Below are positions 2,477 to 62,915 of a DNA stretch of 64,000 nt, piece after piece. The notes below the pieces were generated by a model. That model was not told the origin of the DNA. It ran no database searches and saw nothing but the letters and a program-made list of their open reading frames with translations. This DNA comes from a candidate division WWE3 bacterium. GTDB taxonomy: Bacteria; Patescibacteriota; WWE3; UBA101185; UBA10185. Where the stretch lies: the NCBI GenBank assembly GCA_016182565.1, contig JACPGI010000003.1, positions 5,280 to 69,279 of the forward strand, given 5' to 3'. Positions within the stretch are counted from its first letter, which is position 1. Each line of letters starts with the position of its first letter. The position numbers and the translations under genes are program-made.

Positions 2477-3451
2477 CTACCAAAGGTTGTGCACAACATT
2501 TACTCCAAGTGTATTAAACCCATGATCAAGCATTAAAATCATATCTCCCTTACGATCCCCACTTCCAAGTACAGCTCCTACTAGTTCTTTTCCATCATTT
2601 GATGCGTAAGTTACAAGGCAAAGTCCTGCAACTTCCGTGTACCCAGTTTTAACTCCGGCAACCCCAGGGTAACTGCTCAGTAAATTAGTTTGATTTTCCA
2701 GATAAATATACTTATGGTCATTTGTATCTGAGATTTCGTACTGCAAAGTAGCAACAATTTTTCTGAAGGTCGGATTTTTTAAGGCATATCTTGTTAATTT
2801 TGTAAGATCTGCAACCGAACTCATGTTCCCATCATCGAGTCCACTTGGATCAGTAAACACAGAATCGGTAAGCCCTAGCTCTTTTGCTTTTATATTCATC
2901 CAGTCTACAAATCTAGATTTATCCCCAGCGACCCCTATTGCGATAGCATATGCAGCATCGTTTCCGGAGTTTAATATCAAGCCATACATAAGTTCTTCCA
3001 GTGAGTAAATCTCACCGTAATCAAGATTCATACTATTCTCGCCAACCTCATCTGCTTCCTGACTAACGTATATCTTTTCTCCAAGTTTTTTGTGTTCCAA
3101 GGCTACAACGGCCGTCATTATTTTGGTAAGACTGGCAATCGGCAGCTTCTCGTTTGGATTCTTTGAAAATACTATATTTCCCGAGTTTATATCGATAAGA
3201 AACCCAGCAGTGCCTGAAATAAAAGGTTCATTTGCGGTACCAATCTCTTCTTGTGGTTGCCAATTTGGCTCAGGATCATAAGTATCAACAATCGTTTGGT
3301 CATATAACTTCTTGGAATCTATTTGCTGCTCTTTTACAAGCCCGGTTATAAAAAATTTTGTTGTAGTATCGCTGGTTTTGAAAACAAGAACAGCTAGAAG
3401 AATTAAAATTATTGTGAGTCCGATGTTTAATAGTATTTTATTTCTATTCAT
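2477..3451 (-). CDS. D-alanyl-D-alanine carboxypeptidase (serine peptidase S11, PBP5-like), N-terminal membrane anchor
   Basis: SxxK (SLTKIMTA), SGN (NSGND) and KTG (KTGYT) motifs, plus an N-terminal TM segment. Confidence 0.8.
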   Translation of the reverse strand: MNRNKILLNIGLTIILILLAVLVFKTSDTTTKFFITGLVKEQQIDSKKLYDQTIVDTYDPEPNWQPQEEIGTANEPFISGTAGFLIDINSGNIVFSKNPNEKLPIASLTKIMTAVVALEHKKLGEKIYVSQEADEVGENSMNLDYGEIYSLEELMYGLILNSGNDAAYAIAIGVAGDKSRFVDWMNIKAKELGLTDSVFTDPSGLDDGNMSSVADLTKLTRYALKNPTFRKIVATLQYEISDTNDHKYIYLENQTNLLSSYPGVAGVKTGYTEVAGLCLVTYASNDGKELVGAVLGSGDRKGDMILMLDHGFNTLGVNVVHNLW

Positions 3452-3520
3452 AACGCGGATTAGTGTATGTTATCATAGTTGCATTACGCTTTTGTAATTA
3501 ATTATAGAACGGAAAACTTT

Positions 3521-3787
3521 ATGTACGAATTATTAGACTTTTATGCAGATTGGTGTGGTCCATGTCAGATTATGAAACCAATTTTTGCAGAAGTTGAACC
3601 CGCATTTGAAGGAAAAATTTCTTTCAAGACAGTTGATGTTGAAGCTGATCCTGATAAAGCTGTGAAATTTGGTGTTATGGGTATCCCTACTTTTGTTGTA
3701 TTAAAAGACGGCAAAGAAGTTGATCGCAAAACCGGTGCCATGCCAAAAGAATCCTTGGTAACTTGGCTTAAAACACATGTAAATTAA
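3521..3787 (+). CDS. trxA: Thioredoxin
   Basis: WCGPC active site. The start was reassigned to the ATG at 3521 (MYELLDFYADWCGPC); the track ORF begins upstream at 3479. Confidence 0.9.
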   Translation: MYELLDFYADWCGPCQIMKPIFAEVEPAFEGKISFKTVDVEADPDKAVKFGVMGIPTFVVLKDGKEVDRKTGAMPKESLVTWLKTHVN

Positions 3788-3821
3788 GTAGTTTAGTTTT
3801 GGTTTGTTTGAAAGGAAAAAA

Positions 3822-4910
3822 ATGTCTGCCCGCATTGCAATTAACGGTTTCGGAAGAATAGGTCGAGCCGCCTTTCGTATAATTTTGGAAAAAAATTTGG
3901 CTGATGTTGTTGTGATTAATGATCTTACAAACGCCAGAATTCTCGCTCATTTATTAAAATATGATACGGCATACGGCATTTATCCAGCTCAAATTTCTGT
4001 TGAAGAAGATGGGGTGGTTGTAGAGACGGAGGGTAATTCAAAGATGGAAGAGCATTTTGTAGAAGTTACTCCGAAAGAGTCCTACCTTGTTGTAAATGGG
4101 AAAAAAACTAAAGTAATTTCTGAAAAAGATCCAGCAAATCTTCCATGGAAAGATATGGGTATAGATGTGGTTTTAGAATGCACAGGTAGATTTACAAAAG
4201 ATGGCTCTGCAAAAGCACATATCACAGCAGGAGCAAAAAAAGTTGTGGTTTCTGCACCAACTTCAGGAGATAACGACGATGTAATGACTTTTTTGAAGGG
4301 TGTTAACCACGAAAGTTATTTAGGTCAAAATGTTATATCAAATGCTTCGTGTACTACAAACTGTATAGCGCCCGTTGCATCCGTAATACATGCCAATTTT
4401 AAAATCTTAAAGTCTTTGATGACGACAGTGCATAGTATTACCGCCGAACAAAGCATAGTAGATGGACCTCCTCCCGGGCTTCATCCGGACTTAAGAAGAG
4501 CAAGAGCTGCAGGACACAACATAATCCCAACTACCACAGGTGCTGCAAAAGCTATTGGTAAAGTAATTCCGGAATTAAATGGAAAATTTGATGGGATTGC
4601 TTTGAGAGTGCCTACATTAGTTGGCTCTCTGTCAGATATTACATTTGTGGTAGAGAAACAAACTACGGTTGAAGAGGTTAATAAAGCATTTATCAAAGCA
4701 AAAGAAAACCCATTTTATAAAGGAGTACTAGATACTACATGGGAGCCTTTAGTATCAAGCGATATTGTGGGAAGTCCATTTTCTACGATTGTGGATCTTT
4801 CCATGACAAAAGTTGTAGGGGGAGACCTTGTAAAAGTTTTAGCTTGGTATGATAACGAGTGGGGTTATGCTAATAGACTTGTTGAAATGGCACTTCTCGC
4901 GGTTTCGTAG
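3822..4910 (+). CDS. gap: Glyceraldehyde-3-phosphate dehydrogenase
   Basis: NGFGRIGR NAD-binding motif and the SNASCTTNC catalytic Cys region. The AAAGGAAAAAA RBS favours the ATG at 3822 over the track start at 3804. Confidence 0.9.
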   Translation: MSARIAINGFGRIGRAAFRIILEKNLADVVVINDLTNARILAHLLKYDTAYGIYPAQISVEEDGVVVETEGNSKMEEHFVEVTPKESYLVVNGKKTKVISEKDPANLPWKDMGIDVVLECTGRFTKDGSAKAHITAGAKKVVVSAPTSGDNDDVMTFLKGVNHESYLGQNVISNASCTTNCIAPVASVIHANFKILKSLMTTVHSITAEQSIVDGPPPGLHPDLRRARAAGHNIIPTTTGAAKAIGKVIPELNGKFDGIALRVPTLVGSLSDITFVVEKQTTVEEVNKAFIKAKENPFYKGVLDTTWEPLVSSDIVGSPFSTIVDLSMTKVVGGDLVKVLAWYDNEWGYANRLVEMALLAVS

Positions 4911-4996
4911 GTTTGTTATCTGTTGTAATTTCTCAGACAAAATTCAAAATTTAAATATTACTGGGTAGATTAGAAGATTAAACTTCTGTAAATGCT

Positions 4997-5044
4997 AAAA
5001 CAGCCAGAGGATAAGCAAGTGCTTTTTCCATCTGGCTGTTTTTA
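4997..5044. terminator. Bidirectional intrinsic terminator hairpin between gap (+) and a small minus-strand gene
   Basis: Stem AAAACAGCCAGA/TCTGGCTGTTTT with an internal loop, followed by TTTTTAGG on the plus strand. Confidence 0.5.
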
Positions 5045-5051
5045 GGTTAAG

Positions 5052-5294
5052 TTACGGTTGCCCCCATTTGTGACATGTGTCTTCAATTCCCCTCATCGAA
5101 GTTATTGAAAAGACACAAGGGTGCCCCTCCACCTCATAGAAAAGATGGAACATCGGGCTCCCGTCCATGCTTTCACTGAGGGAGTATGAACCGCCATCTT
5201 CCATTCCGTAATACAGGAAAACGGGGCCTGCACAGCATGCAATACACGCAACTATGCATAAAAGCGTGAAAAGCAAGTTCAAAAATTTTTTCAT
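5052..5294 (-). CDS. Hypothetical small Cys-rich membrane protein (80 aa) in a GC-rich insert
   Basis: N-terminal TM MKKFLNLLFTLLCIVACIACC. Local GC is clearly above the flanking genes. Confidence 0.4.
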   Translation of the reverse strand: MKKFLNLLFTLLCIVACIACCAGPVFLYYGMEDGGSYSLSESMDGSPMFHLFYEVEGHPCVFSITSMRGIEDTCHKWGQP

Positions 5295-5501
5295 GGCTGA
5301 TGAGCCTCCTACGTGCTATTATACCGCCAAACCCCCATTCTGGCAATGACTATAGGTTGCCGAATTGTCCGAATTATGCACCATAAAGGACTTTCTGCCC
5401 AAGGCAATCCTTGATTTTGCCATTGGTATTTACCTCGTTAATACTTTAAATTCACCTCTAACCCATCCCAAACCAACCTCAAAACCTGTTATCATTACCT
5501 T

Positions 5502-6476
5502 GTGGAGTCACTCAAATCTGCCCCAATTCAAAAAGGAACTCGTGTTTTTGTTCGATGTGATCTTGATGTCCCTGTGTCAGAGGGTAAAGTTAATGAGGTA
5601 TTTAGGCTTTCAAACCTTATACCAACCCTAAAACTAATAATACAAAAAGGAGGACGCCCTATAATTGTAGGACACATGGGAAGGCCCGAAGGAATTTTTA
5701 GAGAGGCCTTATCGACAATGCAGCTTAGACCATTTTTTGATTCTACCCTTGGCGAAAGTAATTATGAACTTCTTCAAAATTTAAGATTTGATTCCCGTGA
5801 AGAAAAAAATGACATAGAGTTTGCCAAAGAACTTATCGAAAAAACAAAATGCACTTTATACGTAAACGAATCTTTTGCAAATTCTCATAGAAAACACACC
5901 TCAATGATCGAACTACCTAAACTTCTTCCTCATTTTGCTGGACTTCGTTTGTGTGAAGAGCTAAGTATTTTAAGTAAGGTGCTAAAAAATCCCAAAAGAC
6001 CACTTATTGCAGTTATTGGTGGGGTAAAATTAGATTCAAAAAAACCTGCAATAAAAAAGTTTCTTGAAATTGCGGATGGTGTTTTAGTTGGTGGTAGGAT
6101 TGGTTTAGACTGGGACGAATTAATACCACCAAACCTTTTTCTGCCAGTTGACTATGCAGAAGGCAACAAAGACCTCGGCGAAAAAACTCTCGCCCACTTC
6201 TCAAAAATACTTCAAAGTGCAAGGACCATAGTTTGGGCAGGCCCAATGGGACTTTTTGAAGATCAAAACTACAGACATGGTACAAAAGTAATTGCTCAAA
6301 ATGTAGCACTAAGCTCTTCTTTTACTATTGTAGGCGGGGGTGATACTATCGCAGCACTGAAAAAAGTTGGTTACTTGGAAAAAATGGATTTTGTTTCTAC
6401 AGGTGGTGGAGCAATGCTTGAATTTTTAATACAAGGCAATCTCCCAGCTTTAGAAGCACTTGGTTATCATGGGTAA
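5502..6476 (+). CDS. pgk: Phosphoglycerate kinase (compact, 324 aa)
   Basis: RVFVRCDLDVPV N-terminal motif, VWAGPMGLFE and STGGGAMLEFL C-domain motifs. Shorter than the typical ~390 aa. Confidence 0.85.
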   Translation: MESLKSAPIQKGTRVFVRCDLDVPVSEGKVNEVFRLSNLIPTLKLIIQKGGRPIIVGHMGRPEGIFREALSTMQLRPFFDSTLGESNYELLQNLRFDSREEKNDIEFAKELIEKTKCTLYVNESFANSHRKHTSMIELPKLLPHFAGLRLCEELSILSKVLKNPKRPLIAVIGGVKLDSKKPAIKKFLEIADGVLVGGRIGLDWDELIPPNLFLPVDYAEGNKDLGEKTLAHFSKILQSARTIVWAGPMGLFEDQNYRHGTKVIAQNVALSSSFTIVGGGDTIAALKKVGYLEKMDFVSTGGGAMLEFLIQGNLPALEALGYHG

Positions 6477-10148: not shown

Positions 10149-11006
10149 ATGACTTACTTCTCACCGACTAAATATATAAAAGATGAATCAAGGGACCCAA
10201 TATATTCAGTGATGAACAAGAGATTCTTTTTCGCCTCGTCAGTCTACCCATTTGTATTTGTGATTTTGGGCATATTCTTTACGGTAACTCAGATCGTGAT
10301 ACCAATTGTTGCTTTGGAAACAACTGATGAAACCTCGAAGTCCGTTTCCAAGTCAGTTTTAGGTATAGTGAGCGGATTTAGAAAATTTGAGTTCAATGAA
10401 CTTTCTTTTAAGTACGACAAAAGTAGAGACACTAACAAACTTTTGAATGGCTCTGGGGCGAAAGATTTAGAAAAATTGTTTGGCAAATCTACCTCAAACA
10501 TAGTTGCCAATATAAATTCTATAAATGATGTCTCAAGTGTTTTGGGCGCTTCTAATACCGGAATTGATATAAATGCCCCTGAGTTTTACTACCTAACTAT
10601 TCCAAAACTTGGAATCTCAAAAGCAAGAGTTGAGAGTAAACCTGCCAACTTGGATCCTGACAAAGCCCTTGGGCATTATGTGGGATCTGCTTTTCCCGGA
10701 GAGGTTGGAAATGCGTTTATTTATGGCCATTCTGTACTACCAGCTTTTTATAACCCCAAAAATTATAAATCAATATTCTCGACTTTAAGCAGTTTAGATG
10801 TTGGGGATAAGTTTACAATTGACTATAACAATAAAACATATACATATTCTGTGGAAGGTAAAAAGACATTAAAACCGGAGCAGGTTGACCCATTAGCTAC
10901 TTTTAAGCCTGGGTATTTAAGTGAATCTACAGTTACACTGATGACTTGTTCACCGGCAGGTACAAAGCTAAAAAGACTTTTAGTATATGCGAGCTTGGTG
11001 GAGTAG
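10149..11006 (+). CDS. Sortase (transpeptidase) with N-terminal membrane anchor
   Basis: Catalytic TLMTCSP (TLxTC), conserved His (IYGHSVL), C-terminal Arg, and an N-terminal TM. Confidence 0.8.
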   Translation: MTYFSPTKYIKDESRDPIYSVMNKRFFFASSVYPFVFVILGIFFTVTQIVIPIVALETTDETSKSVSKSVLGIVSGFRKFEFNELSFKYDKSRDTNKLLNGSGAKDLEKLFGKSTSNIVANINSINDVSSVLGASNTGIDINAPEFYYLTIPKLGISKARVESKPANLDPDKALGHYVGSAFPGEVGNAFIYGHSVLPAFYNPKNYKSIFSTLSSLDVGDKFTIDYNNKTYTYSVEGKKTLKPEQVDPLATFKPGYLSESTVTLMTCSPAGTKLKRLLVYASLVE

Positions 11007-17164: not shown

Positions 17165-17236
17165 AATTCTGTAATTTATATAATTTGGGTAACTAAGGTT
17201 TGATGTGGTGTGGAGTCATAGGATAGGTTTTAGTAC

Positions 17237-17272
17237 CATCCATCCCAAATCTTTTCAAGTTTGGGATGGATG
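17237..17272. terminator. 13-bp perfect hairpin, bidirectional terminator between lepA (+) and a zinc-ribbon gene (-)
   Basis: CATCCATCCCAAA / TTTGGGATGGATG arms with a 10-nt loop. Confidence 0.55.
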
Positions 17273-17297
17273 TGAAACAAGAACATATCGTTGAGGT

Positions 17298-17528
17298 TTA
17301 GGTCGGCTGTGAATCGGGAAGATCGTGAAGTGGATGGCCGCATTCGATGCAGAATTGGGCATCCGATTCGTTGGGGGTATCGCACTCTTCCCCGTTGACG
17401 GTGTGTCGGCAGATAACACTACCATGCTGTGTTCCAGATGCAAGAATGGCCGATTTGGATGCAAGAAGGGAGTTAGGATCCCCCGTTTGTAAACCTCTGG
17501 GTGGCCGAGCTATAGGAATGGTTGACAT
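17298..17528 (-). CDS. Double zinc-ribbon protein (76 aa), GC-rich
   Basis: CxxC...CxxC pairs (CRHTVNGEEC... and FCIECGH). There is a strong AAAGGAG RBS 9 nt before the ATG. GC is markedly above the genome background. Confidence 0.55.
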   Translation of the reverse strand: MSTIPIARPPRGLQTGDPNSLLASKSAILASGTQHGSVICRHTVNGEECDTPNESDAQFCIECGHPLHDLPDSQPT

Positions 17529-17724
17529 CTTCAGTTGCTCCTTTCGTTGGATTCACCTTCATCTTGTTAGATGAAAATTTGGTCGGATTATCTTCCTATT
17601 TTTTTGAATTGTAAATACACAAAACTTTCATGTTATTAACTATTGCTTATCAGTCCAATATTTGTTATAGGTTATTCAAGCTTTTTTTGTCCCATACGGT
17701 AAGAAACTAAAGGAGATGAGTCTC

Positions 17725-18462
17725 ATGACAAAAAAGATCAAAGGAAGGCGAATCAATTGGCTTTTGCTTTTTGGGGCTGCCGGTGCCGGAAAGGGCACAC
17801 AGGCAGCGAGGATTCGTGAAATTCTCGAAAAACATGGATTACGTGTGGCTTTGCTTGCTACTGGTGATCTGTTTCGTAATCCTCCTGGAACGCTGGATCG
17901 CGGTGTTGTATCACAAATCAGTGAGAACATGAAAAAAGGTGTGTTGGTAGACGATGCAGTTACCATGGTCATTGCTGGTGAGGCACTTAACGCCAAACTT
18001 GAGGAGGACCCTGACTGGGTGATATTGGATGGTTTGCCAAGAAATGTTTTTCAGCTTGCTGCGGTTTTGTTCGCCATGACCTCAATCGGACTGGCACATT
18101 TTTTCACATTTGAACTTGCAGTGGCCGACAGTCTTCTTATCCCACGTCTTCAAGGTCGAAAGACTTGTAAAAGTTGTGGTAAAGTCCATCCGGCCTCCAC
18201 TGATTTAGCAGGTGCATGTCCAAAATGTGGGAAGGTCACCTTGTTTATTCGCGATGACGATAGCAACCCAAAGTCAATCCGGAATCGCTTAGGTGACTAC
18301 AGGAAAACGATCTCAAGTGTTTTGGATGCGCTCAGAAAACTTATCTCAACACTTGAACTGAAAGATCGGTTCAGTGTGGAGACTGTTGATGGGTCGCTTC
18401 CGGAAGACTCTGTTACTGACCGCATTATCAAGCACCTTGATCTTCAAGACCAACCCGCTTAA
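17725..18462 (+). CDS. adk: Adenylate kinase with Cys4 zinc lid, GC-shifted
   Basis: GAAGAGKGTQA P-loop, LATGDLFR, ILDGLPR, the lid CKSCG...CPKCG, and RDDD. The second ATG at 17725 was chosen for its RBS spacing. Confidence 0.85.
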   Translation: MTKKIKGRRINWLLLFGAAGAGKGTQAARIREILEKHGLRVALLATGDLFRNPPGTLDRGVVSQISENMKKGVLVDDAVTMVIAGEALNAKLEEDPDWVILDGLPRNVFQLAAVLFAMTSIGLAHFFTFELAVADSLLIPRLQGRKTCKSCGKVHPASTDLAGACPKCGKVTLFIRDDDSNPKSIRNRLGDYRKTISSVLDALRKLISTLELKDRFSVETVDGSLPEDSVTDRIIKHLDLQDQPA

Positions 18463-25916: not shown

Positions 25917-25968
25917 AATTATTAACTTATATTAACGATCTTTTCCGCCTCTAGAACCTAGCAAAACT

Positions 25969-27324
25969 CTATTTTAATTTGTTTCTTATACTACTTATCT
26001 GTTTTTTTATACTCTCCTCCGATTTTCCTATAAATAACACTGCCAAAATGTTACAAGCTAATAAATCTGGATTCGCAAGTATCATTCCGTAACCTTTTTG
26101 TTTTGTGTAAAGTTCTTTATCAAAAAGTTTATAAGCTTGTGCTGGCGTTAACTTTTTTGAGCCCTCAAGTTTAATGTCTTGAATGTTTACAAAATATTTT
26201 GTCGAGTAGTTTTTACCAAGAAGTGCTTTGCAAAATTCATGGGCGTGAGTGCCACCGGTACGTCTTAAATTTGCCTCTATCGCATAAAGTTTGTTTGTTT
26301 TTGACACTACAAGATCCATATCAAATACGCCTTTATACCCATATTCTGCAAGTTTTTTGCCTATTTTTTTTGCAGCAGCAAAAGCTATTTTGATGTGTTT
26401 ACTCTTGTCCACATTTTTGTTCATACCTACACCCATAAACGTTTTTTTGTCCTCGGCTATGATTTGTTCACACGCATACTCATTTATGACTTTTCCGTTT
26501 TCATCAATTCGCATCTCTACATTCGGAGATCCCCCCAGTTTTGTGGTATCGGTATCTACCTTTTCTTCTACCACAAGACATGCTGAATGCCACATTTCCC
26601 CATCTAAGTCTTTTCTAATTTGTTTGGAAAATGCCTCCTTGTTTTTTGGTAATTTACTTTGAGACATAAAGATAACCCCTATGCCCTGAACACCACGGTT
26701 ATATTTGATAACAAAGTTTTTCTTTTGTCCCATAAACCACCAAGCTGCCTCAATTGCTTCCTCTAAGTTTTCAACAATAAATCCTTCAGGAAGATGAATT
26801 GGAAGTTTTGGATCTTTTACCATTTCCCATAAGTGTCTAAAACCTCTTTTAGAGTGAAAGTAAGTTTCGATAAATTTTTTACCTTTTGGAAAAGTTTCAG
26901 GCAAGGTAAATTTAAGCTTTTTACTCTTTAGAAAATCAACTAGATCATAAAATTCATCTGTCTGGCGGTAAGGGATAATTTGTATATTTGGATTATTTTT
27001 TATTATTTCTATGAATTTTGTACTAAGTGTCTTATCTTTGATTAAATCTAGTGAAATTGTATTTCCTAATTTCTTTGGAAAAAGGTTTATAACATTTTTC
27101 CAACCTGCTAGTTTTTTTAGAGTTTCAAAGTGTTTAGAGTCTATTTCTATAGGTGTAATAATTACTTTATCATCGCCGCCGTATAAGATAGATCTGTTGT
27201 TATCTAGAGCATCATATTTGGTCCAGAATTCCATTTCATCTTTGGGAAGTTTTTGATGACCCTTGTAATAAGACTCTAAGATATTTCCAATATAGATTTG
27301 CTTTAACTTTATAGTTTTTGCCAT
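25969..27324 (-). CDS. ATP-grasp fold enzyme (carboxylate-amine ligase-like), function unknown
   Basis: C-terminal GVFDMDLVVSKTNKLYAIEANLRRTGGTH ATP-grasp motif with a pre-ATP-grasp N-domain. It is an orphan gene convergent with infB. Confidence 0.55.
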   Translation of the reverse strand: MAKTIKLKQIYIGNILESYYKGHQKLPKDEMEFWTKYDALDNNRSILYGGDDKVIITPIEIDSKHFETLKKLAGWKNVINLFPKKLGNTISLDLIKDKTLSTKFIEIIKNNPNIQIIPYRQTDEFYDLVDFLKSKKLKFTLPETFPKGKKFIETYFHSKRGFRHLWEMVKDPKLPIHLPEGFIVENLEEAIEAAWWFMGQKKNFVIKYNRGVQGIGVIFMSQSKLPKNKEAFSKQIRKDLDGEMWHSACLVVEEKVDTDTTKLGGSPNVEMRIDENGKVINEYACEQIIAEDKKTFMGVGMNKNVDKSKHIKIAFAAAKKIGKKLAEYGYKGVFDMDLVVSKTNKLYAIEANLRRTGGTHAHEFCKALLGKNYSTKYFVNIQDIKLEGSKKLTPAQAYKLFDKELYTKQKGYGMILANPDLLACNILAVLFIGKSEESIKKQISSIRNKLK

Positions 27325-27451
27325 TAGGAGAATTTAGCATAGATTCGGGGCTTGGTCAGTAGGATTAGTGGATTGTGCGTGTTATTTATAGATAATAAGC
27401 AAATTTCGAGATTTTAAACATACCTATAGTATAATGAGATTGGAGGTAACA

Positions 27452-27895
27452 ATGAAAAAAATCCCAAGAAGACCATTGTTGACGTTGACTGTTTTAATTA
27501 TCCTGCTATCAGGAGCGTTCCTGATCCACCCCTTTAATCCCGGATACCATGGGGCAAAAGCTGTTGGACCTGCCGAGAGCTGGCAGGAGTTGGTTACAAG
27601 AAGCACCGGGCGGATTGTGCTTCAGAGCCTGCAGAGCAGCCTGCTTGGACCTTCCGGTCGTCAAGATGAAGATGGCTGGATTGTTGTATCATCAGATCTC
27701 TCTGAGGTTCTTGCCGCAATTCCACATGATGTTTTGACCCTACACCTGTCCTGCTTTGGGATAGATGCGAGTAATATTGAAATGAGTGGGGATATTCAGT
27801 TGCTTCAGGCCTTTGCCTCTCTCTGCAGCGAACATTTTTATGTGCTGTATGAGCGACTTCCAGCAAATGAGCGAGTTTCACCAGAACAGGGTTAA
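27452..27895 (+). CDS. Hypothetical secreted protein, strongly GC-rich
   Basis: Signal peptide MKKIPRRPLLTLTVLIILLSGAFLI and GGAGG RBS. GC is far above the genome background. Confidence 0.5.
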   Translation: MKKIPRRPLLTLTVLIILLSGAFLIHPFNPGYHGAKAVGPAESWQELVTRSTGRIVLQSLQSSLLGPSGRQDEDGWIVVSSDLSEVLAAIPHDVLTLHLSCFGIDASNIEMSGDIQLLQAFASLCSEHFYVLYERLPANERVSPEQG

Positions 27896-27900
27896 AGCTA

Positions 27901-27939
27901 TTTAGAGCGAAAGCAATGAAATTCTGCTTTCGCTCTAAA
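27901..27939. terminator. 15-bp perfect hairpin after the GC-rich ORF
   Basis: TTTAGAGCGAAAGCA / TGCTTTCGCTCTAAA arms with a 9-nt loop. Confidence 0.45.
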
Positions 27940-27992
27940 ATTCTAAGAATAAGAACTCCCCTAAGACTTTAAATTATTACCCTATTTCCAAT

Positions 27993-28021
27993 TTGACTTT
28001 CCGATACATATATCCTATAGT
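27993..28021 (+). promoter_or_regulatory. Sigma70-like promoter TTGACT-N17-TATAGT placed for a leaderless transcript
   Basis: Consensus -35, 17-nt spacer and a good -10. The ATG at 28028 lies about 7 nt downstream and there is no RBS. Confidence 0.4.
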
Positions 28022-28027
28022 TACAAT

Positions 28028-28261
28028 ATGCATAGCATGGTTGTGATGATCTCATACAGCCCCGGCCCTGAATCTCAGGAAACCCCTCGGAACAGGCCAA
28101 ATTGCTGGCTAGTGGACGGGATACAAACCCGCCCATCGTTTATTTTATTTCTGCTTACCTTTTTTGCGTGTATTACAGGCGTTAGCGCAGGAGAACAGAT
28201 CCTGGCAGCCCCGGTTGGTAACTCCGGTTGTCGCCAATTATGCGCTCTAGGAGCAGATTGA
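28028..28261 (+). CDS. Hypothetical small membrane protein (77 aa), GC-rich
   Basis: An ORF with a hydrophobic core (SFILFLLTFFACITGVSAG) directly after a promoter-like motif. Confidence 0.3.
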   Translation: MHSMVVMISYSPGPESQETPRNRPNCWLVDGIQTRPSFILFLLTFFACITGVSAGEQILAAPVGNSGCRQLCALGAD

Positions 28262-28499
28262 AATGGCCGATGAAAAGAGCCAGATGTATTAAATCATTTT
28301 AAGTGGCCGGACTTCGTGTCTGCCCCAATGGTTTGAACCGACTGTGATGATGTCTCCCCCTGAGACATTAGAAGAGGTCGATGAGTATCTTAGAGCAATT
28401 AATCCACTCTGGGGATTAATTTTTTCTAATAAATATTGTGTTTGAGAACGACACATACTCGGACTTTCGGAAAACACAGTCGGTCACCACACAAATTAA

Positions 28500-28542
28500 C
28501 GAGTCTCTTTTTGTTTACACGAAAGAGACTCGATTTGTTTTT
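28500..28542 (+). terminator. Strong intrinsic terminator closing the GC-rich islet
   Basis: CGAGTCTCTTT / AAAGAGACTCG 11-bp stem followed by ATTTGTTTTT. Confidence 0.6.
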
Positions 28543-28582
28543 ACCCTGTTTTAGCCGATTCCCATCTGTTATCATTCTGACT

Positions 28583-29449
28583 ATGGAAACTCTAACAATG
28601 TGTGATTTATGTGGTAGCGTAAAAATCCACTCAATTGATGGGGACGCTTTACTGTACAAGTGTTCTGACTGTAATTATATTTTTGACAACCCACGCCCAA
28701 CGATACAAGAAATAATTAACTTTTATTCAAAGCCAGCAAAATACGATCTTTGGCTCTCGGAGCTTTCTTTAAGAGATGGGCTTTGGAAGCGCCGTGCAAC
28801 TAAACTTGCAAGATATATTAGAGGTGGTGCACTTTTGGATGTTGGAGCCGGCATTGGTCAATTTTTACAATTTGCAAAGCCGTATTTTACAGAGCTTGTA
28901 GGTACTGAAGTTTCAAGTTCGGCTGTTGAACTTGCCAAGTCTAAATATAATTTGGAAATCTTACATGGTGAGGTCGAAAAAATAGATTTTGGTACCAAAA
29001 AGTTTCAAGTTATTACCCTTTTTCATGTTTTAGAGCATGTTCATTCACCAAGAAATCTAATTCAAAAATGTTATGACTTACTTTCTTCTAGCGGGATGTT
29101 ATTTATTGCTGTTCCAAATGATATCGAAAGCATCAAAATGCGAATAAAAAAATTGCTTAACACAAAATTAAATAACAGATATGAGGGCACAAAAATGGCC
29201 TTAAAACGCATAGTTTTAGATGGCACAACCCAAGAGATTCATCTATCACATTTTACGCCTCATGTGCTGGCTAAGTTTCTAATGTCTTACGGGTTTGAGA
29301 TAGTTGACAATACAATTGACTCTTATTATGTGGCAAGTGGTAAGAGAAAAGTTCTCAAAGATATTTACTATGGGATTCACTGGTTAATAAATCGACTTTT
29401 TGGCACAAATCTTTATGACACTATTTGGATTGTTGCAAAGAAAATTTAA
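28583..29449 (+). CDS. Class I SAM-dependent methyltransferase with N-terminal zinc ribbon
   Basis: CDLCG...CSDCNY zinc ribbon and the LDVGAGIGQF motif I. The start was trimmed from the track ORF to the first ATG (28583) or the ATG at 28598. Confidence 0.7.
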   Translation: METLTMCDLCGSVKIHSIDGDALLYKCSDCNYIFDNPRPTIQEIINFYSKPAKYDLWLSELSLRDGLWKRRATKLARYIRGGALLDVGAGIGQFLQFAKPYFTELVGTEVSSSAVELAKSKYNLEILHGEVEKIDFGTKKFQVITLFHVLEHVHSPRNLIQKCYDLLSSSGMLFIAVPNDIESIKMRIKKLLNTKLNNRYEGTKMALKRIVLDGTTQEIHLSHFTPHVLAKFLMSYGFEIVDNTIDSYYVASGKRKVLKDIYYGIHWLINRLFGTNLYDTIWIVAKKI

Positions 29450-29620
29450 GTAATGCTCTTAGTTCCCAAGTTTTTCTGAAAGGTATAAAGTCTTCCCCCA
29501 ATATAGCAGTTAAGCCTTGACAAAGCAACCTATATCATGTACATTTCCATGTTAAAAACTTCTTGTGGCCGCTTTTGAAAAGTTTGGTCTTAAAACAGCA
29601 GGTTCTAACAGAAAGTACAT

Positions 29621-62432: not shown

Positions 62433-62499
62433 CTTCATATATTTTTTCTTTTGATTAAAACAATTCTTGTTAAGGAATTAAGGTTACCTGCCCAAAGAA

Positions 62500-62525
62500 A
62501 AACGCAGCTTTTTAAAGCTGCGTTT
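62500..62525. terminator. 12-bp perfect hairpin (AAACGCAGCTTT tt AAAGCTGCGTTT); terminator for minus-strand rnpB (U-tract on the minus strand) and a weak terminator for the plus-strand transporter gene
   Basis: Perfect inverted repeat. The minus-strand reading is followed by UUUCUUUGG. Confidence 0.6.
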
Positions 62526-62530
62526 CTCGT

Positions 62531-62886
62531 ATCGGGAAAATAATAAGCCAGATTCTGTTTCAAGCCAATCATCTATCTAGTGCTCCATCTTTATACCGTT
62601 TGCTTTTTAAAGCAAGTCGGGAAGCGTTCCTCAGACGGTAATTTCGTGGATTGCTGCGGGTGGGATTGCCCGTTTCACTCTTTCTTCATGCTAAGTTACC
62701 CTAGTTTAGAAAAAAGCATCGTCACTGTTGCTCTCAGATCCTGTTAATTCAGAAATCTGTTCTTGGCAGTTTTCACCGCCTAGACACCAGCTGTTGCCAG
62801 TCGGAGCTTACACTCCGTTCCCCCGCTTACTGCAGTCTGGACTTTCCTCCTGTTAAAAACAGGCGATTAGCCTTCTTCCCAAGCGG
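62531..62886 (-). ncRNA. rnpB: RNase P RNA (bacterial type A)
   Basis: Minus-strand RNA carries CR-I AGGAAAGUCC(AGAC), a P3 hairpin CCUGUUUUUAACAGG, GGUGAAA and AGUGAAACGGG loops, AUGA, and CR-V ACAGAAUCUGGCUUA. P2 pairing GCUAAUC/GAUUGGC and a P1 GGGAAGA/UUUUCCC are also present. It is about 356 nt in a 480-bp ORF-free region with elevated GC. Confidence 0.8.
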
Positions 62887-62915
62887 ATTATAACTGATAT
62901 GGTAATATTATTCAC

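Follow-up and report, generated by a model that had tools for sequence, protein, structure and literature searches.

A GC-rich islet between infB and rpsO-pnp in a WWE3 bacterium, read as an orphan protein gene beside a candidate structured RNA gene

Bacterial non-coding RNAs longer than 400–500 nt with complex folds are rare, and among OLE, GOLLD, ROOL and raiA each one that has been characterised revealed unexpected biology. The WWE3 bacteria lie within Patescibacteria, alias the candidate phyla radiation (CPR), whose tiny genomes are thought to retain little dispensable sequence. To our knowledge, no large ornate RNA class is specific to CPR bacteria, and a literature search found no large structured RNA described as CPR-specific. 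Here we describe a GC-rich islet (27400–28545) in a 64,000-nt stretch of a candidate division WWE3 genome (contig JACPGI010000003.1 of assembly GCA_016182565.1), called the window in the following and used for all coordinates unless another locus is named. The islet lies between a gene for an ATP-grasp ligase-like protein and a methyltransferase gene. With a probability of roughly 0.6, we read it as two unrelated transcription units placed side by side in a hypervariable slot, an orphan protein gene (ORF1, the first open reading frame) on the left and a gene for a structured RNA on the right.

In AT-rich genomes, genes for structured non-coding RNAs are known to stand out as long intergenic regions of high GC content (PMC11109978). 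Like OLE, ROOL, GOLLD, raiA and the smtA motif in that study, the right-hand element is GC-rich and geneless over ~520 nt of an AT-rich genome, has its own predicted promoter and intrinsic terminator and a multi-domain predicted fold, and shows neither a conserved ORF nor a tie to one downstream gene. It differs from them in matching none of these families, in having two representatives and in its CPR/WWE3 host. On the scale used in the same paper, from which the word 'Patescibacteria' is absent, two representatives make a "low-ranking candidate".

The element also recalls RNase P RNA, tmRNA, SRP RNA and 6S RNA by its size range, its GC excess, its own promoter and terminator and its location among translation and RNA-metabolism genes. 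Unlike these, it gave no Rfam match to RNase P, SRP or 6S RNA at any threshold and no tmRNA with ARAGORN, which found no tRNA either, and the universal RNase P motif GGAAAGUCC is absent from it, as read from the sequence. Close relatives moreover lack it at this locus, which would be surprising for an essential housekeeping RNA unless their genomes carry it elsewhere. At the gathering thresholds of Rfam 15 there was no match in the 64 kb. A search of both copies with its 4227 models at E ≤ 10 gave only chance-level miRNA, snoRNA and RNA-OUT matches, with no family in common, and tandem repeats were not found, which excludes array-type RNAs.

The right-hand element and its counterpart in a second genome

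We compared the window with eight related WWE3 loci (L082, L084/L085, L086, L087, L088, L117 and L118). The second copy of the element was found in L082 (GCA_964595135.1), which shares 78% identity with the window in IF-2 and 73% in the ATP-grasp protein. The right-hand half of the islet contains the following features.

27993–28021, plus strand: predicted RNA-element promoter TTGACT-N17-TATAGT, sigma-70-type and strong, ending 6 nt 5′ of the ATG at 28028
28027–28545, plus strand: candidate structured non-coding RNA of ~520 nt, with two 5′ hairpins, core, middle hairpin, 3′ multi-branch domain and terminator
28028–28261, plus strand: ORF2 (77 amino acids) within the RNA element, read here as a chance ORF and not as a gene
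28103–28285, plus strand: core domain of 183 nt, predicted stem P1 (CUGGCU/AGCCAG) enclosing hairpin P2, a long irregular stem P3–P5 and a two-hairpin tip; the best-conserved part
28286–28486, plus strand: 3′ region with the T6 hairpin and a conserved block CGGAAAACAC (28468–28477), similar in hairpin order in both predicted structures
28397–28427, plus strand: 9-bp hairpin AAUUAAUCC/GGAUUAAUU followed by T6; weak (−8.9 kcal/mol, z −2.4)
28491–28543, plus strand: predicted terminator with a lower stem ACAAAU/AUUUGU (6 bp) and an upper stem of 12 bp, then GUUUUU (−19.2 kcal/mol, z −5.7)

In L082, an 822-bp stretch without a called gene comes after the ATP-grasp gene and leads directly to a gene for a DHH-like protein. 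This stretch comprises a promoter, a GC-rich body and a terminal hairpin, and nhmmer aligned window positions 28004–28538 to L082 9960–10546 (E 1.8e-8), with the promoter and the terminator hairpin with its T-run at matching relative positions. The GC content of the element is practically the same in both genomes (45.1% in the window, 45.2% in L082), as is that of the two cores (49.7% and 50.5%), against backgrounds of 36.8% and 37.5%, respectively.

The TTGACT-N17-TATAGT promoter named in the original prediction is present. Its L082 counterpart reads TTGACA...TATAGT, and the −10/start block ATATATCCTATAGTTA...TATGCA is identical between the two genomes; the promoter alignment scores 39 compared with 16.5 ± 2.7 in shuffles. 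At the other end, the position of the terminator is kept in L082 (10489–10536), and both of its stems are compensatorily changed, the lower from ACAAAU/AUUUGU to CGAAAC/GUUUCG in L082 and the upper from GAGUCUCU/AGAGACUC to GAGCGCCU/AGGCGCUC. For the terminator hairpin, a two-sequence MAFFT alignment gave a structure conservation index of 0.87.

The islet had been credited with three hairpin terminators. All three hairpins are there (27901–27939, 28397–28427 and 28491–28538), and the description as terminator holds for the last of them, a conserved stem-loop with a U-run as in an intrinsic terminator. The hairpin at 28397–28421 with its T6 is a terminator in form, but its stem is weak, it lies inside the RNA element and it has no counterpart in L082. 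The one at 27901–27939 has no U-tract and thus not the form of an intrinsic terminator. A generic terminator scan flagged none of the three.

Within this DNA, the proposed gene for a 77-amino-acid hydrophobic peptide did not hold up. The ORF exists, but its GC content is flat over the three codon positions (0.54/0.51/0.47) and the peptide is not conserved in L082. The shared ATG opens unrelated ORFs of 77 codons in the window and 61 in L082, with only the first three residues (MHS) in common, and the two genomes read the conserved block CCCATCGTTT in different frames, one as ...RPSF... and the other as ...SHRF.... A tblastx comparison of the window with L082 under genetic codes 11 and 4 (TGA as sense) detected the promoter block only and no conserved peptide. 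Recoding was rejected for this reason and because TGA is a normal stop here, used by 5 of 38 genes. A pseudogene of slot proteins was likewise rejected after a negative blastx of the element against the slot proteins of the other genomes.

ORF2 does resemble leaderless hydrophobic peptide genes and the peptides of type I toxin-antitoxin systems in being short and hydrophobic and in starting at the predicted transcription start. It differs from both in that its peptide is not conserved where the DNA is and that it bears no coding signature, and from type I toxin-antitoxin systems also in that the promoter scan found no antisense RNA promoter at ORF2. Judged by codon composition and the comparison with L082, these results show ORF2 to be a chance ORF, and the leaderless translation proposed for it, ORF2 being no gene, is unsupported.

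Predicted fold of the element and alternative readings of it

Both copies are predicted to fold more stably than dinucleotide shuffles of themselves, with a minimum free energy (MFE) of −170.2 kcal/mol (z −5.8) in the window and −186.5 kcal/mol (z −4.7) in L082. The window element folds better on the plus strand than on the minus strand (z −3.4). The two independently computed MFE structures present the same order of two 5′ hairpins, a large domain, a middle hairpin, a closed multi-branch 3′ domain and a two-part terminator. In both, the large domain is closed by a short helix (CUGGCU/AGCCAG in the window, GCUGGC/GCCAGU in L082) and leads at once into a hairpin, then into a long irregular stem from CAUCG/CGAUG that ends in two hairpins. 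When the dot-bracket strings were aligned with the bases ignored, they scored 398 compared with 276 ± 25 in 150 shuffled and refolded controls (maximum 343; z 4.8), and the two MFE structures consistently share 41 pairs compared with 10 ± 7 in the controls.

For the core, we built a covariance model (R1) from the window sequence alone with its own MFE structure, and a sequence-only model (R2) from the same input. R1 matched L082 10054–10249 from end to end with 32.4 bits (E 5e-7 over L082 and 5e-6 over 168 kb) and R2 reached 14.8 bits on L082, the structure adding ~17.6 bits. In the R1-fitted alignment 97% of the cells pair, several of the pairs being G-U pairs specific to the plus strand, and 11 pairs are doubly substituted compared with one in each of six slid controls. 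Taken with the ends described above, the comparison shows that the predicted promoter and terminator of the element are conserved, as its core fold probably is too, and that the islet is made up of two separate predicted transcription units.

Several results weigh against the assignment as a structured RNA. One of the two rows defines the structure and the alignment is fitted to the model, while the MFE z-scores and pair counts are weak evidence; the cautions of Gao, Yang and Rivas (PMC11234323) on such structure evidence apply here in full. Two known copies are too few for a covariation test of the R-scape type, and sequence-based RNAalifold gave a structure conservation index of ~0.2 at ~40% identity, which is uninformative. 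A third covariance model (R3), made for the 3′ domain (28335–28486), found no match in L082. The element was not found at this position in L088, the closer relative by IF-2 (81%), and exact-pattern scans of the JGI metagenomes and IMG/VR did not find it either. In the metagenomes, the exact promoter pattern had no match and a two-block core pattern had 26, all in random coding sequence; two scans of IMG/VR gave random matches only, and nhmmer found no homologue across 260 loci. The RNA family may be tiny or young.

From the two copies being ~40% identical outside a few blocks, from the 3′ domain that R3 did not confirm and from the absence in L088, it could be argued that the right half is a decaying remnant, such as a pseudogene or an old insertion passed down to both genomes, with the promoter and terminator as leftovers. 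We consider this unlikely. Neutral DNA should not stay alignable between genomes with IF-2 at 78% identity, nor should its GC content remain 8–13 points higher than the AT-biased background in each of the two lineages. The identical −10/start block speaks against decay as well, the gain in score from structure suggests selection on pairing, as do the pairs in core and terminator that changed on both sides, and blastx and tblastx revealed no trace of a former gene. On balance, the stretch 28027–28545 is probably a structured accessory non-coding RNA, and its high GC content would then stem from selection for base pairing within a genome otherwise rich in AT, and not from a foreign origin.

If it is transcribed from its own strong promoter, the unit at 27993–28545, with its conserved core and conserved terminator, would constitute a stand-alone gene for a candidate structured RNA of ~520 nt. 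Such an RNA might act in trans as a folded molecule of the protein-binding or scaffold type and not as a leader. We infer a stand-alone role in trans because the downstream neighbour differs between the two genomes (the methyltransferase gene in the window, the DHH-like gene in L082), because the DHH-like gene keeps its own promoter and because a strong terminator closes the element.

These same points make a cis-acting role improbable, in which the element would be a long 5′ leader or attenuator and read-through of its terminator would control the methyltransferase gene here and the DHH-like-rpsO-pnp genes in L082. That proposal draws on the position of the element 5′ of genes of RNA metabolism (DHH-like, ribosomal protein S15, PNPase), of which rpsO and pnp are leader-regulated in other bacteria, and on the promoter scan, which found no promoter in the window from the end of the RNA terminator (28543) to the first codon of the methyltransferase gene (28598), so that a leader role towards this gene is conceivable. 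In both L082 and the window, however, the DHH-like gene has its own conserved promoter downstream of the element. In addition, a leader of ~520 nt would be far longer than is typical, and the element is absent from relatives in which the DHH-like-rpsO-pnp genes are the same.

ORF1 and its putative transcription unit

The left-hand half of the islet has the layout of an ordinary small gene.

27325–27412, plus strand: spacer separating the ATP-grasp start codon from the first promoter, homologous to the L082 spacer before the RNA promoter
27406–27435, plus strand: promoter-like site TCGAGA-N18-TATAAT for ORF1, from the promoter scan
27442–27447, plus strand: Shine-Dalgarno sequence GGAGGT, 4 nt 5′ of the ATG at 27452, read from the sequence
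27452–27895, plus strand: ORF1, coding for an orphan protein of 147 amino acids with an N-terminal basic and hydrophobic segment followed by a ~110-amino-acid domain with two Cys
27901–27915/27925–27939, plus strand: hairpin with a perfect stem of 15 bp and a loop of 9 nt, 5 nt 3′ of the ORF1 stop (−21.7 kcal/mol, z −5.5)

This unit would thus consist of a promoter, a Shine-Dalgarno sequence, a 147-amino-acid orphan with a signal or anchor segment and a stable 3′ hairpin, which is presumed to form the 3′ end of the ORF1 transcript or to stabilise it. GC content at the three codon positions of ORF1 is 0.58/0.42/0.44. This is a coding-type pattern with a foreign-looking third-position value (GC3) about double that of the neighbouring core genes (0.19–0.29, ~0.23). 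The islet region is also present on a Logan contig from SRR12113420, and ORF1 is called as a gene in the Logan assembly.

The original prediction described the product as a secreted protein of 148 amino acids. The ORF, counted at 147–153 codons and 147 amino acids, and its N-terminal hydrophobic segment are present (MKKIPRRP-LLTLTVLIILLSGAFLI), but the signal peptidase site (SGA|F?) is uncertain, so that a secreted and an anchored form cannot be told apart. As predicted, the ORFs of the islet have no homology that database searches could recognise. A word-indexed search of 5.8 billion proteins matched ORF1 to nothing besides itself, Pfam, NCBIfam, PADLOC, phage and plasmid searches returned nothing, and an exhaustive HMMER scan yielded three weak matches, P0002–P0004, which we judged spurious. 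P0002 (E 4.6e-11) was rejected as a homologue; its score is an artefact of seven tandem repeats, and the pairwise E-value is 1.8.

In the same slot of L087 (GCA_964529125.1), there is a gene for a 156-amino-acid protein with 22% identity to ORF1 over 141 residues (pairwise E 0.017). Aligned by Smith-Waterman, the pair scores 46 compared with 27 ± 4.3 in shuffles (z 4.5; 7 of 2000 shuffles reach it), and the L087 protein shares the ORF1 layout of an N-terminal hydrophobic anchor, "HP" and a ~110-amino-acid domain with two Cys. A relationship between the two proteins is suggestive only.

In our assessment ORF1 is very probably a real orphan gene for a membrane or secreted protein, as judged from these sequence features. 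Weighing against it, its homology to the L087 protein is marginal, and an AlphaFold model from the single sequence had a mean pLDDT confidence score of 46, which is uninformative. That low score, together with the orphan status among 5.8 billion proteins, would also agree with a left half that is GC-rich non-coding sequence, such as a part of a longer RNA, and open by chance; we estimate the chance of such an ORF in 1.1 kb at 48% GC as small but not negligible (~0.05). Yet ORF1 has a Shine-Dalgarno sequence and a promoter, a period-3 structure with GC1 above GC2 and a plausible arrangement of signal or anchor and domain in common with the L087 protein from the same slot. Its region also lacks excess RNA structure on either strand (fold z −0.6 on the plus and +0.8 on the minus strand, with −1.4 to +0.35 in five control coding segments). 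On these grounds, non-coding sequence is not a likely explanation of the left half.

ORF1 is absent from all eight related loci and unique to this genome. The spacer between the ATP-grasp gene and the first promoter, which was also aligned with MAFFT, aligns globally to the L082 spacer with a score of 14 compared with 6.3 ± 2.3 in shuffles (z 3.3; 7 of 1000 reach it), and the 60 bp just 5′ of the RNA promoter in the window have no homology to that spacer. Because ORF1 and its hairpin lie between the old promoter region and the second promoter, they would have been inserted in this lineage, or lost from L082 by a deletion between promoter copies. The sequence ATACCTATAGT overlaps the promoter at 27406–27435 and returns as ATATCCTATAGT at 28010–28021. 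The sole repeat flanking ORF1 is this promoter motif, ATA(T)CCTATAGT, at 27420–27430 and 28010–28021. Its 8-mer CCTATAGT occurs four times in the window with 1.3 occurrences expected, and as many are reached in 7 of 100 shuffles, which is not significant. Taken as a class, promoter-like sites show no enrichment in the islet region.

The variable slot and its surroundings

The gene order in the window is adk-hrcA-grpE-dnaK-dnaJ-nusA-infB, the ATP-grasp gene on the minus strand, the islet, the methyltransferase gene, the DHH-like gene, rpsO and pnp. The IF-2 encoded here is 100% identical to an NCBI protein from a candidate division WWE3 bacterium. Among the eight loci, the contents of the slot between infB and the DHH-like gene differ as follows (percentages are IF-2 identities to the window).

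L084/L085 (71%): slot empty
L118 (72%): slot empty
L088 (81%): ATP-grasp gene only, 132 bp from the DHH-like gene
L082 (78%): ATP-grasp gene and RNA element
Window (slot 25917–29620): ATP-grasp gene, ORF1, RNA element and methyltransferase gene
L086 (70%): genes for two membrane proteins
L087 (73%): genes for three small proteins
L117 (73%): gene for one protein of 384 amino acids

Going by these gene contents, the slot is a hypervariable cargo hot spot in WWE3. The cargo genes have an overall GC3 of 0.44–0.66 compared with 0.22–0.34 for IF-2 (0.53–0.66 against 0.34 in L087; 0.49 against 0.30 in L117). The two genes that flank the islet belong to the cargo themselves.

25969–27324, minus strand: ATP-grasp ligase-like gene (451 amino acids), left neighbour, divergent from the islet
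28598–29449, plus strand: class I SAM methyltransferase gene (Pfam Methyltransf_23, 3e-20), right neighbour

The ATP-grasp protein has weak Pfam ATP-grasp matches and weak NCBIfam matches to the L-amino-acid ligases BesA and LdmS, and those of its 107 homologues that are named by source are from CPR/WWE3. Its gene is present in L082 (73% identity) and L088 (60%) and absent from L084, L086, L087, L117 and L118. In IF-2 (81% vs 78%) and the DHH-like protein (82% vs 71%) the window is nearer to L088 than to L082, and in the ATP-grasp protein it is nearer to L082 (73% vs 60%). Because the ATP-grasp similarity is incongruent with the flanks, and because L088 is without the RNA, this pattern suggests that slot cargo is exchanged by recombination. 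ATP-grasp homologues elsewhere (L089, L090, L261) have no RNA element alongside. A precursor of a ribosomally synthesised and post-translationally modified peptide for the ATP-grasp enzyme was considered and rejected, as neither ORF of the islet is kept beside the ATP-grasp gene in L082, L088 or L261. L090, from a more distant genome, contains two genes for proteins of 451 amino acids back to back in divergent orientation (3402–4757 on the minus and 5001–6356 on the plus strand), one of which is the ATP-grasp homologue; going by equal length alone, the second may be a paralogue.

The methyltransferase gene is absent from all eight related loci and is slot cargo of this genome only. Its product has an N-terminal CxxC...CxxC (MCDLCG...KCSDC) that is zinc-ribbon-like, and its sole match in a defence database is a generic methyltransferase-domain match to PADLOC mad2. 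The promoter of the DHH-like gene is conserved downstream of the methyltransferase gene (~29515–29545). Together with its leader it reads TTGACA-N17-TGTAYAWT and then CCCCTGTYAAAAAC in three genomes (window ~29515–29570, L082 ~10591–10650, L088 ~650–720 on the minus strand), and could be a conserved regulatory site for DHH-like-rpsO-pnp.

The locus resembles flexible genomic islets in that the cargo between the same two core genes differs among relatives, in its atypical GC3 and in the incongruent ATP-grasp gene. Unlike these, it has no integrase, tRNA or att site, it sits inside the classical nusA-infB...rpsO-pnp neighbourhood, and one of its cargo items would be an RNA gene and not a protein gene. 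Neither the six-frame translation nor scanning the slot genes with Pfam, NCBIfam and PADLOC revealed a recombinase, integrase, transposase or remnant of one, in keeping with the original prediction of no recombinase; the flanking direct repeats or att-like sites for which it called were searched for, and no significant one, nor a tRNA target, was found. Searches against plasmids and phages by blastn and tblastn gave no match.

This bears on the proposal that the entire 1.1 kb forms one cassette of horizontal origin or one mobile remnant, and that it encodes a secreted protein of 148 amino acids and a leaderless hydrophobic one of 77. The atypical composition, the variable slot, the restriction of ORF1 to this genome and a promoter geometry that would permit leaderless translation of ORF2 all agree with it. 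However, the right half (~550 bp) is kept in L082 at the same position and with the same GC content but without ORF1, so that conservation with equal composition in a relative, named in the original prediction as evidence against itself, is what this half displays. ORF2 is neither conserved nor coding in signature, and recombinase, tRNA, att site, tandem repeats and plasmid or phage matches were all missing from the searches. We regard a single cassette as very improbable. What remains of the suspected horizontal acquisition is ORF1, which is unique and has a foreign-looking GC3; atypical composition combined with presence/absence polymorphism was found for ORF1 and not for the RNA half, which L082 shares at equal GC.

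The islet had also been called far more GC-rich than the genome. The excess is real, with 43.9% for 27400–28545, 46.7% for 27500–28400 and 49.9% for 27500–27900 compared with 36.8% for the whole 64 kb, and the GC-richest 400-bp and 900-bp windows of the stretch begin near 27500, ~3.5 standard deviations above the mean. It was somewhat overstated, as the region at 17.3–18.5 kb with the adenylate kinase gene equals the islet in GC content at the 1.1-kb scale. This gene, adk (17716–18462), is as GC-rich as the islet, and likewise in L082 (256–987), with 46.5% and 47.3% GC and a GC3 of 0.41 and 0.42, respectively. Its protein is ~39% identical between the two genomes compared with 70–80% for the neighbouring core genes; adk is either fast-evolving or replaced by a xenologue.

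Three further regions of the window drew attention by composition or fold. Directly 5′ of adk lies a 551-bp intergenic region (17165–17715) with 41% GC and a fold z of about −1.8. The geneless intergenic region of 483 bp at 62433–62915 (41.6% GC) has a fold z of −4.3 on the minus and −2.7 on the plus strand and holds a hairpin with a T-run at ~62503–62530; it has no Rfam match and, on its predicted fold, could be a second non-coding RNA candidate of the window. The third is a 591-bp gap between large ORFs (4911–5501; 41% GC, fold z −3.8 on both strands) with an ORF of 80 amino acids inside it (5052–5294, minus strand). From its lipoprotein- or signal-like start MKKFLNLLFTLLCIVACIACCAG, a GGAGG site, a GC3 of 0.52 and a hairpin downstream, this is a further putative GC-rich gene for a small secreted protein, similar to ORF1.

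Taken singly, both halves of the islet are of a kind already known, a GC-rich intergenic RNA and an orphan in a flexible slot, and it is the RNA family itself that is undescribed. The RNA is a low-depth candidate with two copies, and the protein gene an ordinary orphan. The case illustrates how a GC-rich "islet" in an AT-rich genome may be mistaken for horizontally transferred DNA if an RNA gene makes up one half of it, and it places a recombination hot spot of WWE3 within an infB-rpsO-pnp region that is conserved otherwise. A structured RNA of ~520 nt with ~50% GC in a genome of 37% GC would be worth a targeted search. It is conceivable, though we put this forward tentatively and as doubtful, that the element is the first-seen member of a new class of large (>500 nt) ornate RNAs specific to WWE3/CPR, carried as accessory cargo by the ATP-grasp ligase gene in the nusA-infB...rpsO-pnp region and acting in trans, for instance by binding proteins as a scaffold or decoy with a link to RNA turnover. 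If this were true, CPR bacteria with their small genomes would maintain and exchange large structured RNAs as flexible genes.

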